Shown here in pieces: positions 20,888 to 57,939 of a DNA stretch of 59,193 nt (position 1 is its first letter; each line of letters opens with the position of its first letter). The DNA is taken from the NCBI GenBank assembly GCA_043760135.1, contig JAYUPL010000005.1:1-59193 (forward strand). The letters are read 5' to 3'. Below the pieces are notes generated by a model, which made no database searches, had not been told where the DNA came from, and saw nothing but the letters and a program-made list of their open reading frames with translations. Made by a program: the position numbers and the translations under genes. This stretch comes from Candidatus Parcubacteria bacterium (lineage in GTDB: Bacteria > Patescibacteriota > Minisyncoccia > Phycocordibacterales > CAIZLB01).

Positions 20888-21721
20888 TTAAATCACAATA
20901 GCTTTTAATTCATTTAATGCTTTTTGTGCCTCGTCAACATTTGGAGCTTTGCCATGCCATGTATAATCATTTTCCATAAATGAAACACCTTTTCCGGGAA
21001 TAGTTTTTGCAATAATTATCGATGGTTTATTTCTTACATTTTTAGCAAGAGTAACTGCAGCAATGATCTGCTCAATATTGTGACCATCAATCGTTTGTAC
21101 GTGCCAGTTAAATGCTTCCCATTTCTTATCCATCGGGTCGAGGGGTAATATAGTTTCAGTATTTCCATCAATCTGAATATAGTTTCTATCAACAATCACG
21201 ATAAGGTTGTCGAGTTTTTCACGAGGAGCCAAAAGTGCGGCCTCCCAAATCTGCCCCTCATCTTGTTCTCCATCCGAAATCAAACAGTAGATATATCGAC
21301 TTACATTATCTTTAAAATCTCTTTTATCAGCAATGGCCATACCTACTGCCTGTGAAAGGCCTGAACCAAGTGGACCTGACGAAGTTTCAAGAGATGGTAG
21401 AAATTCTCTATGAGGATGACCTTGCAATATTGAACCAAATTGTCTCAAAGTAAATAATTTTTCCAAATCAAAATATCCAGCATGGGCCATTGTTGAATAC
21501 AATACCGGGCAGGTGTGACCATTTGATAGTACCAATCTATCACGAAGTTCCCAAAAAGGATTTTTAGGATCGTGCCTCATTTCCGAAAAATAGAGTGTTG
21601 CATAAATATCAGCCATACCGAGAGGTCCACCCGAATGTCCTGATTTTGCTTTAAAGAGCATCTCGATAATTGAAATGCGAATATCTTTGGCTTTTTGTTT
21701 TATTAGATCTATTTTTTCCAC
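20888..21721 (-). CDS. transketolase, N-terminal (TPP pyrophosphate-binding) subunit
   Basis: 277 aa with GHSGGPLGMADI and DGEQDEGQIWEA motifs. GTG start. No C-terminal subunit gene is adjacent. Confidence 0.85.
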   Translation of the reverse strand: MEKIDLIKQKAKDIRISIIEMLFKAKSGHSGGPLGMADIYATLYFSEMRHDPKNPFWELRDRLVLSNGHTCPVLYSTMAHAGYFDLEKLFTLRQFGSILQGHPHREFLPSLETSSGPLGSGLSQAVGMAIADKRDFKDNVSRYIYCLISDGEQDEGQIWEAALLAPREKLDNLIVIVDRNYIQIDGNTETILPLDPMDKKWEAFNWHVQTIDGHNIEQIIAAVTLAKNVRNKPSIIIAKTIPGKGVSFMENDYTWHGKAPNVDEAQKALNELKAIVI

Positions 21722-21727
21722 TGCTGT

Positions 21728-21736
21728 ATTATATCA
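21728..21736 (-). promoter_or_regulatory. extended -10 element (TGATATAAT) 6 nt upstream of the transketolase GTG
   Basis: The minus strand reads TGATATAAT-ACAGCA-GTG. Confidence 0.45.
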
Positions 21737-21744
21737 TGAAGTGA

Positions 21745-21822
21745 GTTTAATGAGCGAGCCGACCCGTAAGAATTTTCTTTAGAAAATTCTGAGGACTTCT
21801 CGGCGGAGCAAAGAGAATGAGC
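21745..21822 (+). repeat. E2 structured repeat, copy a
   Basis: About 86% identical by hand alignment to 57247-57322 in the same orientation. The hairpin is AGAATTTTC-TTTA-GAAAATTCT nested in GCCGA...TCGGC. It abuts the stop codon of the 169-aa ORF. The + strand reads ATG..MSEPTRKNFL-TAG. Confidence 0.8.
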
Positions 21823-22332
21823 TTATTTTAAAATGATACGAGCATAAACTTTATAATCAGATTTTGTATCAACAATCAACACATACCTATATTCTGCAAA
21901 TGAAATATCACCTCCCTTCATATCAATCACATATTGCATTATTGATTCATTTTTTACCAATGTTCCGAAGTCGATATATTCAGTCGTACTTATTACCTCC
22001 GGTGTATTTGTTAGCCAAATATTTAAATCAGCATTTGGATTGGCCACTTCAACAGACAGAATCAATTTGCCATTTAATTTTTCCAACGTTACCTTGCGAA
22101 CAATATTTGTCTTCGTATCACTATTGTATACTGTAGAAGTATTCTTTATCTGACCCTGACTATTGTATGGATATATAGCATTTACCTGATCAACATAATC
22201 AGTACCGATTTGAAACGGAGATTTATTTGGACCAATAACTAAATTTGTCAAAGCAGGTAGAAATACAAGTGCTTTTATAGCAAGATAAAAAATAATCAAT
22301 ACAAGAATAAGACCAATAACTTTTTTAATCAT
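21823..22332 (-). CDS. hypothetical membrane-anchored protein
   Basis: 169 aa with an N-terminal TM helix and a beta-rich extracytoplasmic part. No motif recognised. Confidence 0.6.
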   Translation of the reverse strand: MIKKVIGLILVLIIFYLAIKALVFLPALTNLVIGPNKSPFQIGTDYVDQVNAIYPYNSQGQIKNTSTVYNSDTKTNIVRKVTLEKLNGKLILSVEVANPNADLNIWLTNTPEVISTTEYIDFGTLVKNESIMQYVIDMKGGDISFAEYRYVLIVDTKSDYKVYARIILK

Positions 22333-23561: not shown

Positions 23562-23595
23562 AAAAGAAAAAGAGCCTAGACTTTTTCGTCTAGGC
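23562..23595 (-). terminator. rho-independent terminator
   Basis: The minus strand reads GCCTAGAC-GAAAAA-GTCTAGGC followed by TCTTTTTCTTTT. Confidence 0.75.
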
Positions 23596-23616: not shown

Positions 23617-24369
23617 TTAGTTTAAAACTGGCATTGGGAATTCTGTTCCTGGGCACAATAACATATTCATTTGTCTTTGTGTTGTTTTATAGAAATATCC
23701 TGTTGAATAATCTATTCCCCATGGAGTTAGAACATTAGTTCTATATTTCAATTGGAAAGTTTTAACAGCATCAAAAGTCATATTTCCGAAGAATCCTGTT
23801 GTTGGGATGTTAAGACCTAGGTTTCCATTTAGGAAAGCTTGTAATCTTTTAACCTCGGCTACATTATTTTTTCTACCTTTTTTCATAAAAGTTTTCATAG
23901 TATCACATGTAGATGTTGATGTAATAACATTAGATACAGGTGTACCTGAAGTTATTCCAGAGAACCCACCAACTGGACCACTACCGAATGAAGATCCAAC
24001 TACTCCACCGCCTCCAGAAACTGGTGGTACTGGTGTTGTTGTAGTTGTAGTAGCAGTTGAAGTTGCATTAAAAGCAGCACAATCTGGATCAGCAACTCCT
24101 GTTAGGAAGTCACCGTCAGCATCTGTACCTGCAGCACATGATGCAGCAGTTTCTACAGAAGATGTAGGTATTGTAGTAGTAGCAGTTGTAGTTGCATTAA
24201 AAGCAGTACAATCTGGATCAGCAACTCCTGTTAGGAAGTCACCGTCAGCATCTGTACCAGCAGCACATGAAGCAGTAGTTTCTACAGCTACAATTGCAGC
24301 CTTAGTTGTTACAGTTAATAATGTCGATAGCGTTAAAAGCATTATCAGTAAAAATGTTGTTTTTTTCAT
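23617..24369 (-). CDS. secreted repeat protein with C-terminal peptidoglycan-binding (PG_binding_1-like) domain
   Basis: 250 aa with a signal peptide and two 43-aa Cys/Asp-rich repeats (SCAAGTDADGDFLTGVADPDC.AFNAT). Thr- and Gly-rich linkers follow, then VKRLQAFLN...GFFGNMTFDAVKTFQ. Confidence 0.75.
   Translation of the reverse strand: MKKTTFLLIMLLTLSTLLTVTTKAAIVAVETTASCAAGTDADGDFLTGVADPDCTAFNATTTATTTIPTSSVETAASCAAGTDADGDFLTGVADPDCAAFNATSTATTTTTTPVPPVSGGGGVVGSSFGSGPVGGFSGITSGTPVSNVITSTSTCDTMKTFMKKGRKNNVAEVKRLQAFLNGNLGLNIPTTGFFGNMTFDAVKTFQLKYRTNVLTPWGIDYSTGYFYKTTQRQMNMLLCPGTEFPMPVLN
24062..24287. repeat. near-identical tandem repeat, 129-bp period, inside the 250-aa CDS
   Basis: 24062-24158 and 24191-24287 differ at only a few positions. 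Confidence 0.9.
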
Positions 24370-24422
24370 AATGGATTGAGTGTACCACAGAAGATAATCT
24401 TGTCAAGTGTTCTACGTGATGC

Positions 24423-24457
24423 AAAAGAAAAAGCCGGTCACCCTGTGAGGGATGACC
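24423..24457 (-). terminator. rho-independent terminator of GC-rich cassette 3
   Basis: The minus strand reads GGTCATCCCTCACAGGGTGACC followed by GGCTTTTTCTTTT. Confidence 0.8.
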
Positions 24458-24480
24458 AACTTGTAGTGGAAGGTGCGGAT

Positions 24481-25866
24481 TTAGGGTTTAAGCCCTTTAA
24501 TCCTCCAGAAACGTTTGAGGTCGCTGGTAATTGGGAACGTAACGGTTGCATCTGGAGCAACAGTGACATCTGTGGCATTATCCCAGTCGGCCAAATTGAC
24601 GGATGTTTCCACCCACCAGCTTTTACGATACGAATCGGCCGTAAGACCGGTGGTTGTGATAGTACCAGTCCCACCAGCACGGATAAACGATGTTTTTGGA
24701 TTGTTAGGATACTCCGTCGTCACCCCAATCACAGGATATGCCGTCTCGTTGACCAATTTCACCATTGCCGATTGATCGTTCGCCGAGAATGAGAACGACA
24801 TCGTCGCCCCATCGATTGTATAGGTGCCGGACAAACTCCGGTAGAGCACCCAATAGTCGCCAACAAGGACCAACTGCGGAAGCACCGCCTTCTGCTCGGT
24901 AATCAAGAATTCCTTGATGTTCGGGATTGAAGTCCCGACCAGATTGGAATTGATGGGCACGATCAGATTGCCGGCGAAGTCCCGAGCAAAGATGCTCGGC
25001 AGAGACACATCCCCTTCAGGATTGAACTTAGACTGAGCCATGTTCACTCCGACCGGGTTATGAATGGTGTAGTCGTTGTCGATCCAACTCTCAACTGCAA
25101 AGGAAGCTGCCGTGAAGGTCACCGAGGTGGTGTCTTCAGGGAATACAATCTTTGCCGCGAATGATGCATACGTCGCAGTGCCCTTTGCAGTGTCTTCAAC
25201 CTTCCTCAACGAGGAGAGGCTGTCCAGCCGATTTTCGGTCGCCGGAAAGACGTCTGCATAGAATTTGATCACCGGAGTTGCAACAACCTTGACTCGTGCA
25301 GCCTGGTCTTGAAAGGAGAACAGGATTGGAGTCCCGCTGCCTACCGTATAGGTACCTGACAAACTCCGGTACAATACCCAGTAGTCGCCTGCAAAAACCA
25401 GCGGTGGAAGGTCTTTCTGTTGCTCAGTAATGAAGAACTCTTTGGTATTCGGAATTGCAGTCCCGACCAGATTCGCAGCAGGTACCACCAAGTCGTTGGC
25501 GAAGTTCCGAACAAAGATGCTCGGGACAGTCGCGTCGCCTTCGGGGTTAAACTGAGAAGTGGCCATATTGACACCGACCGGATCGTGCTGGATGTAGTCA
25601 CCGTTGCACCATGATTCGACGGCGTAGCTCGCTCCCGTGAAGGTGACCGAGGTCGTTCCTTCGGGGAATACAATTTTTGCTGCAAAACTAGCGTAGGTTG
25701 CCGAAGCAACCTCCGTATCCTTGAGGTTTTTGACGGAAGACAGAACATCCAAGCGATTTTCAGTCGCTGATGATGAGCTGTCGGCATAGGTTGTCATCAC
25801 AGGTTGAGCTGTGGCAACGAGACTCGCAACAAGTGCAAGTCCCAGATGGACGATTTTAGTTTTCAT
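24481..25866 (-). CDS. secreted tandem-domain protein, adhesin-like (GC-rich cassette 3)
   Basis: Start set at MKTKIVHLGLALVASLVATAQP (signal peptide). Two units of about 175 aa are each about 60% identical, followed by a C-terminal beta domain of about 85 aa ending LKRFWRIKGLKP. G+C is about 45-50%. Confidence 0.75.
   Translation of the reverse strand: MKTKIVHLGLALVASLVATAQPVMTTYADSSSSATENRLDVLSSVKNLKDTEVASATYASFAAKIVFPEGTTSVTFTGASYAVESWCNGDYIQHDPVGVNMATSQFNPEGDATVPSIFVRNFANDLVVPAANLVGTAIPNTKEFFITEQQKDLPPLVFAGDYWVLYRSLSGTYTVGSGTPILFSFQDQAARVKVVATPVIKFYADVFPATENRLDSLSSLRKVEDTAKGTATYASFAAKIVFPEDTTSVTFTAASFAVESWIDNDYTIHNPVGVNMAQSKFNPEGDVSLPSIFARDFAGNLIVPINSNLVGTSIPNIKEFLITEQKAVLPQLVLVGDYWVLYRSLSGTYTIDGATMSFSFSANDQSAMVKLVNETAYPVIGVTTEYPNNPKTSFIRAGGTGTITTTGLTADSYRKSWWVETSVNLADWDNATDVTVAPDATVTFPITSDLKRFWRIKGLKP
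24742..25800. repeat. internal duplication: two units of about 525 bp encoding the paralogous domains of the 461-aa protein
   Basis: ENRLD.LSS...TYASFAAKIVFPE.TTSVTFT...GDYWVLYRSLSGTYT recurs with a 175-aa period. Confidence 0.8.
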
Positions 25867-25932
25867 GATGTTGATGATTTTCTGATTTTCTGGGAACCTT
25901 GACCATTTTTGATTCAAGATGCTGACTCAAAT

Positions 25933-43366: not shown

Positions 43367-43969
43367 TTAATCAGGAGGTGCAGTAAACCCAATCTGATTT
43401 CGAGGCTCATCATTTTCCTTCATCAACAAACGAATAAATTTATAAATCTCATTAAAATTTAGATCATTGTTTCTTTCCATTTCTTCTATCTTTTCCCTTA
43501 ATTCTTTATAGGTATCGATCATTTCCCTCAATTTGGTAAATATTCGTATTATTTGAATGTTTACAGATATTGCCTTATCACTTTTAAGAACACTTGAAAG
43601 CATGGCTATGCCTTGTTCAGTGAAGACGTTTGATTGATATTTTTTATGCTCTCCCCATCTTAAGGTCACAAATTGTGACCTTAAGATGACATTTTTATCC
43701 TTATCTTTCAACGTTTTCTGGTTTGCGGTCACAAATTGTGACCGCAAAAATAGCTCAGACTCTGTTTTATTCAATTGAAACATGAAATCTTCTGGAAATC
43801 GTTTTATATTTCTTTTAACCGCTTGATTCAAAGCCTTCGTGGTAACACCATATAACATAGCCAAATCCTTATCAAACATGACTTTTCTTCCCCTTATGAT
43901 GTAAATCTTTTCTCTAATTATTCCAATATTTATATCTTCGTTATTTTCTGTAATTTCTTGTTTTGTCAT
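43367..43969 (-). CDS. ORF6N-domain protein
   Basis: 200 aa with IRGRKVMFDKDLAMLYGV.TKALNQAVKRN..RFPEDFMFQL and FTEQGIAMLSSVLKS motifs. The LRSQFVT segment is duplicated. Confidence 0.8.
   Translation of the reverse strand: MTKQEITENNEDINIGIIREKIYIIRGRKVMFDKDLAMLYGVTTKALNQAVKRNIKRFPEDFMFQLNKTESELFLRSQFVTANQKTLKDKDKNVILRSQFVTLRWGEHKKYQSNVFTEQGIAMLSSVLKSDKAISVNIQIIRIFTKLREMIDTYKELREKIEEMERNNDLNFNEIYKFIRLLMKENDEPRNQIGFTAPPD
43659..43745. repeat. two copies of a GGTCACA-AAT-TGTGACC palindrome inside the ORF6N gene
   Basis: 43659-43685 has 12-bp arms and 43725-43745 has 9-bp arms. Each encodes LRSQFVT. Confidence 0.85.
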
Positions 43970-53897: not shown

Positions 53898-53902
53898 CAC
53901 TG

Positions 53903-53989
53903 CGGAGGATGTGAGATTCGAACTCACGGAACCCGTTAGGGCTCGACAGTTTAGTAAACTGTTGATTTCAACCACTCATCCAATCCTCC
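53903..53989 (-). tRNA. type-II tRNA, serine-like (G73, long variable arm), anticodon read by hand as ACU; CCA not encoded
   Basis: Hand fold: GGAGGAT-TG-GAT-GAGTGGTTGAA-ATC-A-ACAGT-TTACTAA-ACTGT-(18-nt variable arm)-GTGAG-TTCGAAT-CTCAC-ATCCTCC-G. Confidence 0.85.
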
Positions 53990-55743: not shown

Positions 55744-57039
55744 TTAGAATAAGTCATCTCCGGTAACACTTCCCACTCTTTTATTATAGTTAACCGATCT
55801 TTTTACAAAGAAGTCTCCGTGTTTAGTTGTCATAATTTCATCATCGAACCAATCTGTTTGATCAAGCAATGCTTGGTTAGTCTCGAATATATTTGTGAAA
55901 CCAAGAGATTTGAGTGAGTTGTTGAATCTATTTTTTACAAATTCTTTAACAACCGCTGATGGCATAAAATCCAACTCTCCTTTTTCAAAAATCCAATCTA
56001 TGATCTTCTCTTCTGCCGCATAAGCCTCCTTACAAATATCTATCACACTTTGTTCATAATCTTCATCAAACCAAGTTGGATTTTCCGTTTTTATGATTTT
56101 CATCAAGTCTATCCCAAATAACCCATGTAATTGCTCTTCTTTTGATGTGGCTTCGATCACATTAGACATCCCTCTGAACATTGATTTATGCTTGTTGAAG
56201 GACATAATAATCAAGAATTGTGAGAATAGTGACACATGCTCTATAAATAACGAGAAAAGAAGCAGTGTTTTTGAATAATCTTTAGGATCATCAGATCTAG
56301 AGTGAGCAATAGCCTTCTCGATATAGTTCACACGATCCATAATAGCTGGAATATTTTTTATATTCTCAAACTCGTGATTAAGACCTAATAAATCCAAAAG
56401 GTTGGCATATGCATCCATGTGACGAACCTCTGACTCAGCAAAAGTTGCACCTACAGATCCAATCTCCGGTATTGGTATTTTTTTATATACATCACCCCAA
56501 AAAGTTTTTACAGATACTTCAACTTGAGCAATAGCAAGCATTGCATTTTTAATAGCCGATCTCTCAACATCGTTAATGTTGGCCATATAGTCATGGATAT
56601 CTGATGTAAAGTTAAACTCTGTGTGCAGCCAATATGAATGTCTAATACCATCAACATATTCTAATAATTCTGGGTACTCATAAGGCTTTAGAGTTAATCT
56701 TTTCTTGAAAATATCTTTCTTTCTAAGCTCTGCTCGTTTACTACGATACAAAATATAGGCTTTAGCAGTAAGATGTAAATCTGATTCCATCAAGATAACC
56801 TCTACTGTATCTTGTATACTTTCAACAGACGGGATATGACCCTCTTCGGTGTACTCTGTCTCTATTCTTTCAACCACTTTTTTAGCAACATCTTGAGCCA
56901 CTGCTCTCTCAAACTCACCAGCCTCTTTTAAAGCTTTTGAGATAGCTGTAACAATCTTATCGGAATTAAAATCAACAATCGAATTGTCTCTCTTAAGGAT
57001 AAAATTTATTTTTGGGCTGCGATTGTTAGTGCTTGTCAT
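55744..57039 (-). CDS. nrdB: class I ribonucleotide reductase beta subunit with N-terminal ATP-cone
   Basis: 431 aa. Residues 10 to about 100 are ATP-cone-like (ILKRDNSIVDFNSDKIVTAISKA...). The ferritin-like core has ESEVRHMDAY (E..H plus Tyr) and KEEQLHG. Confidence 0.9.
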   Translation of the reverse strand: MTSTNNRSPKINFILKRDNSIVDFNSDKIVTAISKALKEAGEFERAVAQDVAKKVVERIETEYTEEGHIPSVESIQDTVEVILMESDLHLTAKAYILYRSKRAELRKKDIFKKRLTLKPYEYPELLEYVDGIRHSYWLHTEFNFTSDIHDYMANINDVERSAIKNAMLAIAQVEVSVKTFWGDVYKKIPIPEIGSVGATFAESEVRHMDAYANLLDLLGLNHEFENIKNIPAIMDRVNYIEKAIAHSRSDDPKDYSKTLLLFSLFIEHVSLFSQFLIIMSFNKHKSMFRGMSNVIEATSKEEQLHGLFGIDLMKIIKTENPTWFDEDYEQSVIDICKEAYAAEEKIIDWIFEKGELDFMPSAVVKEFVKNRFNNSLKSLGFTNIFETNQALLDQTDWFDDEIMTTKHGDFFVKRSVNYNKRVGSVTGDDLF

Positions 57040-57246
57040 ACTTATATATATAATAACATTAATTTTAGGTTAAATAATAGTCAAAAATTGGCTTTAAAAT
57101 TCAGGACAGAAAGTTTTCAGATGGCAAACACTGCCTAGAAAACCTTTTATATAGTTAACTTTTCGGAAATCACCAACTAGTCAACTTTACAAAGTACAGT
57201 ACATGAATTATAAATTTTTTAAGTGCCTTTTTCTACTGTTTAGCAA

Positions 57247-57322
57247 GTTTATGAGTGAGCCGACCCGCAGGAATTTTCTGAAGAAAATTTTGAGGACTTC
57301 TCGGCGGAACGAAGAGACGAGC
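57247..57322 (+). repeat. E2 structured repeat, copy b
   Basis: Matches 21745-21822 and abuts or overlaps the stop codon of the LOG-like gene. The + strand reads ATG (57251) MSEPTRRNFLKKILRTSRRNEETS TAA (57325). Confidence 0.8.
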
Positions 57323-57939
57323 TAAACCATCTCCCCTCTCTGTTGCCTAATCATGTCCATCATTTTTCTAACTAAAACTTTAGGATCCTTTTCAAAAACA
57401 ATGTATGGATTTTGTCGATGACTTTTCTCTATAATTATTTTTAACAACTCATCTGTCTCCCATCCATCACTTTGAAGTATTCCAAGAGGTTTTCCATCTT
57501 CATAGGCAATGGTAAATTCGTGTATTGTTCCAATACGTCCAGGGCCTATAATAATAGCATCACATGAGCGAGTAAAAATAAGATCTCTTCCCGGAAAACC
57601 AAAACCAGTAAACGTAACAAGATCCATATAATCTAACGGTAGTCTATATATATCAGTGTGTTCTTTAGGACTTATTGCTGGGGAATAGCCAACAGATAAT
57701 CCACCAGCTTGTTTTGCACCTTGAGCGGCCCAATATGGAAAACCTGATGAGGCACCTGTTACTACCATGCCCCCTTGAGCAACTATTTCCTTCCCTAAAT
57801 CTTTAGCAAGTTCATATGACTCTTGTTTTAAAAAACTTCCGTCGGCTGTTGATGATACTCCGATCTTTGGAGTAAGATATGCATTCTTAATATCATGTTG
57901 CATTGTGCTGATTACTTTCATATTGCTATATTCTAACAC
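57322..57939 (-). CDS. LOG/TIGR00725-family (Rossmann, PGGxGTxxE-type) protein
   Basis: 205 aa with VVTGASSG and IIGPGRIGTIHEF motifs. Confidence 0.75.
   Translation of the reverse strand: MLEYSNMKVISTMQHDIKNAYLTPKIGVSSTADGSFLKQESYELAKDLGKEIVAQGGMVVTGASSGFPYWAAQGAKQAGGLSVGYSPAISPKEHTDIYRLPLDYMDLVTFTGFGFPGRDLIFTRSCDAIIIGPGRIGTIHEFTIAYEDGKPLGILQSDGWETDELLKIIIEKSHRQNPYIVFEKDPKVLVRKMMDMIRQQRGEMV

Follow-up and report, generated by a model that had tools for sequence, protein, structure and literature searches.

The window, 59,193 nucleotides of a Parcubacteria (CPR) chromosome, is a stretch of housekeeping genes. A Pfam scan of 50 ORFs identified uvrA/uvrB, mraZ/mraW, murG, ftsW, mraY, scpA/scpB, rpe, rpiB, gap, gatB, obg, rnc, nusB, dnaE, tgt, infC, rplT, rplI and nrdA/nrdB. 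No transposase, RAYT, recombinase or Tat component was found among the 50 ORFs scanned. Within an AT-rich background (33–36% GC) lie two GC-rich copies of a hairpin element, a unit of ~86 bp present in the same orientation at 21739–21825 (copy a) and 57240–57325 (copy b). Homologues of the proteins encoded beside the copies come from Parcubacteria/Patescibacteria assemblies.

Two direct-orientation copies had been proposed at these sites by a first-pass annotation of the sequence, and a pattern scan recovered both: patterns of half an element, allowing up to three mismatches, matched the window twice, at copies a and b, compared with 0.00 matches expected from 100 shuffles. Neither an nhmmer profile nor a structure-aware regular expression revealed a third copy in the window. 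The earlier figure of ~86% identity becomes 83–87%, depending on the ends chosen. The copies had been located correctly, with limits drawn slightly too short. Each overlaps the stop codon of a minus-strand gene, and the two genes are unrelated. The distance of 0–1 nt from the stop codon given earlier holds but understates the contact, as the outermost helix of the element includes the stop-codon complement. The features of the two sites are as follows.

21719–21736, − strand: start of the transketolase N-terminal gene, with promoter-like TGaTATAAT at 21728–21736 and the GTG start codon at 21719–21721
21739–21825, + strand: copy a, full structured unit
21739–21742 and 21821–21824, + strand: helix P0 of copy a, AAGT paired with GCTT
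21743–21757, + strand: 5′ flank of copy a, GA-GTTT-AA-T-GA-GC-GA
21750–21782, + strand: micro-ORF of copy a (ATG, 10 codons, TAG; MSEPTRKNFL and stop), judged not to be a gene
21758–21762 and 21800–21804, + strand: helix P1 of copy a, GCCGA paired with TCGGC
21769–21790, + strand: apical hairpin P3 of copy a, AGAATTTTC, loop TTTA, GAAAATTCT, bordered by the conserved junction C-CC-GTA / GA-GG-ACTTC
21805–21820, + strand: 3′ flank of copy a, GGA-GC-AA-A-GA-GAAT-GA
21823–21825, − strand: TAA stop codon of the gene for a 169-aa membrane protein (21823–22332), within the 3′ arm of copy a P0
57207–57235, − strand: promoter-like site (TAGAAA, 17 nt, TATAAT) of an nrdB-like gene (55744–57039)
57240–57325, + strand: copy b, full structured unit
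57240–57244 and 57321–57325, + strand: helix P0 of copy b, TTAGC paired with GCTAA
57251–57325, + strand: micro-ORF of copy b (24 codons, MSEPTRRNFLKKILRTSRRNEETS and stop), judged not to be a gene
57259–57263 and 57301–57305, + strand: helix P1 of copy b, GCCGA paired with TCGGC
57322–57324, − strand: TAG stop codon of a SLOG/LOG-like gene (57322–57939, PF18306), within the 3′ arm of copy b P0

The 169-aa membrane protein has no Pfam match. The transketolase promoter-like site begins 2–3 nt past copy a, and the element therefore fills the entire intergenic space. In gene direction, copy b is followed immediately by the promoter-like site of the nrdB-like gene, an ATP-cone nrdB, and no hairpin-plus-T-run terminator lies between the two. 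The copies were also considered as att sites of a 35.5-kb island; the interval consists of housekeeping genes and the repeats are just ~85% identical, and this candidate was discarded.

Several features of the window were recorded in passing. A 200-aa ORF6N-domain protein (43367–43969, −), encoded amid housekeeping genes, is the sole mobile-element-flavoured gene observed; the ORF6N family is frequent in regulators of phages and mobile elements. Local GC rises to 48% at 23617–25917 (−) because of two secreted proteins with internal duplications, one of 250 aa with a repeated AASCAAGTDADGDFLTGVADPDC module and a PG_binding_1 domain, the other of 478 aa with two copies of a ~190-aa module that has no Pfam match. 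The tRNA/tmRNA scan returned only a tRNA-Ser (53902–53989, −), whose 7-nt anticodon loop TTACTAA gives the anticodon ACT. An A at position 34 is unusual in serine tRNAs, GCT being expected for AGY codons. The extended −10 sequence of the transketolase N-terminal gene (TGaTATAAT) is located 6 nt before the GTG, with no Shine-Dalgarno sequence, and the layout is kept in relatives (L074 2555–2577, L076 3516–3537 and L081 about 800–845; L numbers are our handles for related loci); by its sequence, the mRNA looks leaderless. The 5′ region of the ATP-cone nrdB (57040–57235, −) has no Rfam match and contains a block, GTACTGTACTTTGTAAAGTTGACT, that is conserved in L072, L077, L079 and L108 and includes the near-palindrome ACTTTGTAAAGT; the block is a candidate operator or promoter element.

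Fold and strand preference of the element

All six distinct copies available from the window and its relatives fold as one ~90-nt rod on the strand corresponding to the window + strand. From its base, the rod comprises P0 (4–6 bp, including the stop-codon complement), a GA/GA loop, a 4-bp GUUU/AAAC helix, a GA/GA loop, a single U-A pair, a further GA/GA loop, a GC/GC helix, a GA/GGA loop and P1 (5 bp). At the tip, a conserved junction, Y-YC-GYA ... GA-GG-ACU, leads into the apical hairpin. We refer to the helices as P0, P0b, P0c, P0d, P1, P2 and P3; conserved purine (GA/GA) internal loops separate them. Both stems of the first-pass annotation, GCCGA...TCGGC (outer) and AGAATTTTC/GAAAATTCT (inner), fold as it described, while the flanks with their GA/GA loops, which lay outside its limits, belong to the structure. 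The flank of copy b is one base shorter per side than that of copy a, and b-type copies in general show this loss of a single base, at mirrored positions in the two arms.

Across the canonical copies and a variant form found in one lineage (see below), which have identical architecture, helix positions covary and loop sequences remain constant. In a MAFFT alignment (A2), 99% of cells in the outer 17 pairs were paired, and 9 of the 17 pairs showed two-sided changes, of which the four changed P1 pairs all come from the one variant and may reflect a module swap instead of stepwise compensation. The observed pairing and covariation values were reached in none of 500 shuffles. In a control in which partners were slid by 1–3 columns, pairing fell to 35–51%. 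A manual structural alignment of 28 pairs (159 cells) gave 144 Watson-Crick pairs, 13 G-U pairs, no A-C and 2 other combinations. Palindromic symmetry by itself could also produce apparent covariation, but it does not explain the asymmetry between G-U and A-C, nor the fact that every mismatch block sets GA opposite GA.

The strand bias was evident in RNA folding as well: the + strand reached −28 to −32 kcal/mol compared with −19 to −23 kcal/mol for the gene-sense strand, a gap of ~8 kcal/mol, and fold z-scores of the gene-sense strand were only −0.6 to −1.9. At five of six loci the better-folding strand is antisense to the mRNA. It had been pointed out from the two window copies that two stem positions of copy b become G-T and can pair on the + strand only, that is, antisense to the flanking genes. 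Copy b does carry two G-T pairs in its inner stem, and both the wider alignment and the RNA energies agree with that proposal. With DNA parameters the two strands were equal and the rod was not predicted, so that a role of the element as single-stranded DNA is neither supported nor excluded by folding predictions.

No Rfam family falls on the element. At gathering threshold the scan of the window returned one tRNA only, and at E values up to 10 both copies gave chance matches outside the element only. Known motifs were compared and set aside. The resemblance to a hammerhead core (UGAUGAG...CGAAG) is unconserved, copy a reading UAAUGAG and L077 UUCGAG. A kink-turn is a 3-nt bulge followed by tandem sheared G-A pairs; in the predicted secondary structure the loops are symmetric 2x2 GA/GA plus one 2x3 GA/GGA, and the hallmark 3-nt bulge then GA occurs in no loop, which speaks against a kink-turn or box C/D-like motif. 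Comparison by eye with group II domain V, dif/Xer sites, parS and IS200/IS605 ends found defining positions missing or unconserved.

Filled, empty and altered sites in relatives

Orthologous loci were retrieved via the two flanking proteins. Across genomes whose flanking genes are 79–99% identical, the element is variously present, absent, decayed, inverted or replaced by a variant, a presence/absence polymorphism that the first-pass annotation had missed.

At locus a, between the 169-aa gene and transketolase, an intact element is carried by the window and by L103/L104/L105, whose flanking gene is 79% identical to that of the window at the nucleotide level and 64% identical at third codon positions. 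It is absent from L081, L074/L075 and L076. In L080, with a flanking gene 86% identical to that of L103, a decayed element is found: the GC-rich core has mutated to AT and the inner hairpin is deleted, with both ends retained. In L106, with a flanking gene 99% identical to that of L103, the element is inverted and lies ~12 nt further from the stop codon, directly beside the promoter; this inverted allele is represented by a single low-coverage Logan contig (6.7x). The gene end of L106 (2120–2148, compared with L103 2663–2679) shows four synonymous changes within its final six bases, followed by a novel 12-nt stretch, GCTGATAAAATG. From its sequence, this cluster of differences looks like a recombination breakpoint at the element edge.

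At locus b, between the LOG-like gene and nrdB, the window and L077/L078 have an intact element, and L072/L073, L079 and L110 have none. L108/L109 retain both flanks and carry the variant in place of the canonical element, in which GTTTC/GAAAC replaces GCCGA/TCGGC as the outer stem and the apical hairpin differs as well. The inner arm of the variant, GCGAAGAAAC, is the reverse complement of its own flank, TTTCTTCGC (L108 3605–3690), which creates an alternative 9-bp helix on both strands; to judge by this arrangement, the variant may have arisen by internal inverted duplication.

The unit has sharp ends and sits at a TA within or just after the stop codon. TA...TA flanks are found in four of the six distinct copies, the second TA being missing in L106 and in window copy a. 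The stop codon at locus b is TAG in both canonical filled alleles, its G being contributed by the element; among the empty alleles it is TAA in L079 and L072/L073 and TAG in L110. Removal of the element together with one TA restores a TAA stop, as found in two of these three empty alleles. These flanks fit a TA target duplication, though the same TAs are also two pairs of helix P0. The ends do not form terminal inverted repeats of the kind that would match a parent insertion sequence: they agree at paired positions only, about half, and in a double-stranded reading the mismatches always set GA opposite GA. Neither the window nor plasmids or viral contigs yielded a parent insertion sequence.

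Genomes with the element hold one or two copies. The runs holding the window genome, X1 and X2, contained two element-bearing contigs; X4 and X5, runs with L103-type strains, contained one each. Away from the two sites, about 100 kb of related loci contained no copy; the relatives were sampled at these two loci only, which introduces an ascertainment bias into this distribution. A scan of genome contigs gave 70 chance matches in high-GC genomes and one true match, L016, which is the L103 contig. Metagenome and viral scans and a plasmid blastn search gave no true match to the element. Judged from the alleles compared, the element is a discrete, rare and lineage-restricted insertion and no general feature of the flanking genes.

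Where present and intact, the element is highly conserved. Between the window and L103 it is 94% identical, and between the window and L077 85%, set against a third-codon-position identity of 64% for the adjacent genes in both pairs. Bases that never vary cluster in the GC-rich core and the purine loops; drift towards AT has affected the L080 copy. The identities suggest that the intact copies either are under selection or share a more recent common origin than the host genes. The copies do not group by locus: window b and L077 b are 85% identical, L077 b and the L103 copy at locus a 88%, and no a/b pair is as divergent as the locus-b variant. This pattern favours repeated insertion over simple vertical descent.

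The intergenic regions differ in their terminators. At both loci, all empty alleles with enough intergenic space carry a hairpin-plus-T-run terminator, whereas none of the five intact canonical loci keeps an ordinary one; in L103 a T-run and half a stem remain. A terminator is present downstream of the decayed element in L080 and of the variant in L108. In the sequences compared, the element would thus appear either to have been co-transcribed with the upstream gene, making the old terminator dispensable, or to have removed the terminator on insertion. The ordinary terminators themselves deserve a remark. Bidirectional terminators at window 23574–23595, L081 about 745–790 and L074 2500–2535 have a common loop and stem top, TAGACGAAAAAGTCTA / TATACGAAAAAGTATA, and may themselves form a sequence family.

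Origin and role of the element

The best reading of these data is that the copies belong to a small family of ~86-bp palindromic insertion elements of a narrow Parcubacteria clade. More specifically, we put forward, as about an even call, a MITE- or REPIN-like non-autonomous element that is recognised as a strand-specific hairpin and now forms the 3′-end structure of two operons. The element would have spread by insertion, its single-stranded hairpin being the form that a putative enzyme, encoded at another place in the genome, would recognise. A copy lying behind a stop codon would be transcribed with the upstream gene and could serve as the 3′-end hairpin of that gene, as transcript end or as stabiliser. 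Under this proposal, the ordinary terminator decayed at intact canonical copies because the element took over as 3′-end hairpin; classical intrinsic termination would not be expected of it, as no U-tract accompanies the hairpin in gene-sense RNA. The earlier description of a repeated hairpin element at gene ends stands in this respect, unlike the peptide and Tat readings attached to it.

Several observations weigh against an insertion element. The copy number is very low for a mobile repeat (two in the 59-kb window, where MITEs are expected in many copies), the ORFs scanned in the window include no candidate enzyme, the ends, about half identical as double-stranded DNA, are poor terminal inverted repeats, and conservation is far above that of synonymous sites. 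With only one or two copies, a host-level function explains such conservation more readily than selfish spread does. The element falls short of both REPINs and MITEs in copy number and in the quality of its inverted repeats, although it resembles MITEs in being a discrete unit present or absent at orthologous sites.

Comparison with known systems shows where the likeness lies. REPINs are REP doublets mobilised by RAYTs that form a hairpin in single-stranded DNA or mRNA, with compensatory changes on both sides, conserved outer regions and a variable inner part (PMC3116915). The element is likewise extragenic, of the roughly 70–110 nt class and able to form a single long hairpin in single-stranded DNA or mRNA, with conserved outer regions, a more variable inner part and compensatory changes. 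It would also share with REPINs the non-autonomous state, with the enzyme encoded elsewhere. In contrast to REPINs, which occur in tens to hundreds of copies, it occurs in one or two. The halves of a REPIN are inverted copies of one REP, whereas those of the element pair through short helices broken by GA/GA mismatches and are about half identical when inverted; a long compensated hairpin is present, but the halves are not recognisable as inverted REP copies with a small palindrome of their own. No RAYT gene is among the 50 window ORFs scanned, the element has no sequence similarity to known REPs, and its host is a CPR bacterium.

Correia elements occur in hundreds of copies and are bounded by long, nearly perfect terminal inverted repeats. 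The element resembles them in being short, non-coding and intergenic, with TA at both ends, presence/absence polymorphism and occurrence in either orientation, and in that it can supply or replace transcription signals and form an RNA hairpin when transcribed. It differs in its poor double-strand inverted repeats, strand-specific structure and one or two copies, and in a TA duplication that is ambiguous, the TAs also pairing in P0. Bacterial MITEs that duplicate TA, among them the Correia (NEMIS) elements of Neisseria, have been reviewed (PMC10969869).

Integron attC sites were a further candidate. They share with the element an imperfect palindrome at a gene 3′ end touching the stop codon, a one-strand structure, conserved ends and a variable centre. 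However, the element has GTTT at its 5′ and AAAC at its 3′ side, compared with RYYYAAC...GTTRRRY in attC, an order of motifs that is reversed on either strand. Housekeeping genes, and no cassette array, surround the copies and fill the 35 kb between them, and there is no integrase nearby. The candidate was rejected.

The main rival to the insertion element is a host RNA, an explanation that we consider possible but rather less likely. According to it, the + strand encodes a ~90-nt structured RNA, an antisense or cis-acting regulator or a protein-binding RNA, inherited vertically with one duplication and lost in several lineages. The fold is what such an RNA would lead one to expect: covarying helices with constant unpaired purines (the GA/GA loops and the GCA...GAGGACU junction) in both canonical and variant forms, G-U pairs on the + strand only, a strand asymmetry seen with RNA and not with DNA energy parameters, and conservation well over that of synonymous sites. 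By eye, a TATTAT box at 21727–21732 beside copy a mirrors the divergent transketolase promoter and would place the start of + strand transcription on the element's first base, and RNase III is encoded in the window. The comparison of relatives points the other way. No promoter or terminator is common to the copies, conservation being confined to the hairpin. The element has opposite orientations in two 99% identical strains, and many close relatives do without it. The b copies fail to cluster apart from the a copies, L077 b being closer to the L103 copy than to window b, and the locus-b variant is far more different than either b copy. No Rfam family matches.

A related and more speculative suggestion, which we hold as doubtful, is that the element is the first seen member of a new CPR class of structured RNA or single-stranded DNA, built of covarying short helices and four conserved tandem G-A loops. 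It could act as a protein-binding platform or as the substrate of an undescribed mobilisation machinery, and would have taken over the 3′-end function of terminators. Parcubacteria and other CPR bacteria have tiny, tightly packed genomes, in which mobile DNA and non-coding RNAs are little described, and we know of no palindromic repeat family reported from them. The element is very rare and yet conserved far over neutral expectation, has a covariation-supported one-strand fold with regular tandem G-A loops, and repeatedly landed on stop codons at the usual terminator sites. If mobile, it points to a single-strand- or hairpin-recognising enzyme in CPR genomes; if a host RNA, it is a new motif, open to strand-specific transcriptomics and structure probing.

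The two remaining explanations, a plain terminator and a peptide, fit worse than the host RNA. That the element is just an unusual terminator or mRNA-stabilising stem-loop of the gene-sense RNA, with no mobility, appears improbable. Its position is that of an intrinsic terminator: a GC-rich stem-loop right after the stop codon and up to the next promoter, where relatives have canonical terminators, the canonical terminator being gone at all five intact canonical loci. It nevertheless lacks a U-tract after the stem on either strand (the gene-sense continuation is UCGCUCAUUAAACUCACUU) and is for this reason not a canonical terminator; a terminator scan that detected canonical terminators elsewhere in the window did not report it. 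The gene-sense strand is the weaker folder, with GA/GA becoming UC/UC and G-U becoming A-C. At ~86 nt the element has conserved unpaired purines and a sequence conserved across genomes, while ordinary terminators do not hold 85–94% identity where synonymous sites are saturated. It coexists with an intact canonical terminator in L108 and is inverted in L106. The 3′ UTR/terminator idea of the first-pass annotation receives indirect support from the canonical terminators at both sites in element-free relatives.

That the + strand encodes a micropeptide with a twin-arginine-like motif, or that the element is a relic of the 5′ end of a Tat-substrate gene, has a near-negligible chance of being correct. 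The reading frames are as earlier given, MSEPTRKNFL and stop in copy a and, in copy b, an ATG-initiated frame of 24 codons (MSEPTRRNFLKKILRTSRRNEETS) that includes TRRNFLK. The frame is intact in one of six copies, window b: it ends with a stop at the eleventh codon in window a, L103 and L106, L077 has TCG where ATG is expected, and the L108 variant encodes an unrelated 17-aa peptide, MSEFLRRRVCPRQTFED, in frame with the fold retained. Further copies therefore break the frame and preserve the stem, the outcome that the proposal itself had named as leaving an RNA or DNA element only. Several a/b differences are indeed synonymous in this frame, as had been remarked, but they are located in stems and loops and are accounted for by base pairing; the AGC/AGT and AGC/AAC changes, for example, are two sides of one base pair (C-G to U-A). 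The micro-ORF lacks both a hydrophobic h-region and a mature domain, four element reading frames gave no match when searched against 5.8 billion proteins, and the suggested check for tatA/tatC found neither in the 50 ORFs scanned from the window. Read-through of the stop codon into the element was likewise discarded: the open frames mainly reflect base composition, the frame differs between a and b, and an early stop occurs in L108 and L106. On this sequence evidence a coding role is rejected, and the 24-codon 'Tat-like' ORF of copy b should not be called a gene in annotation.
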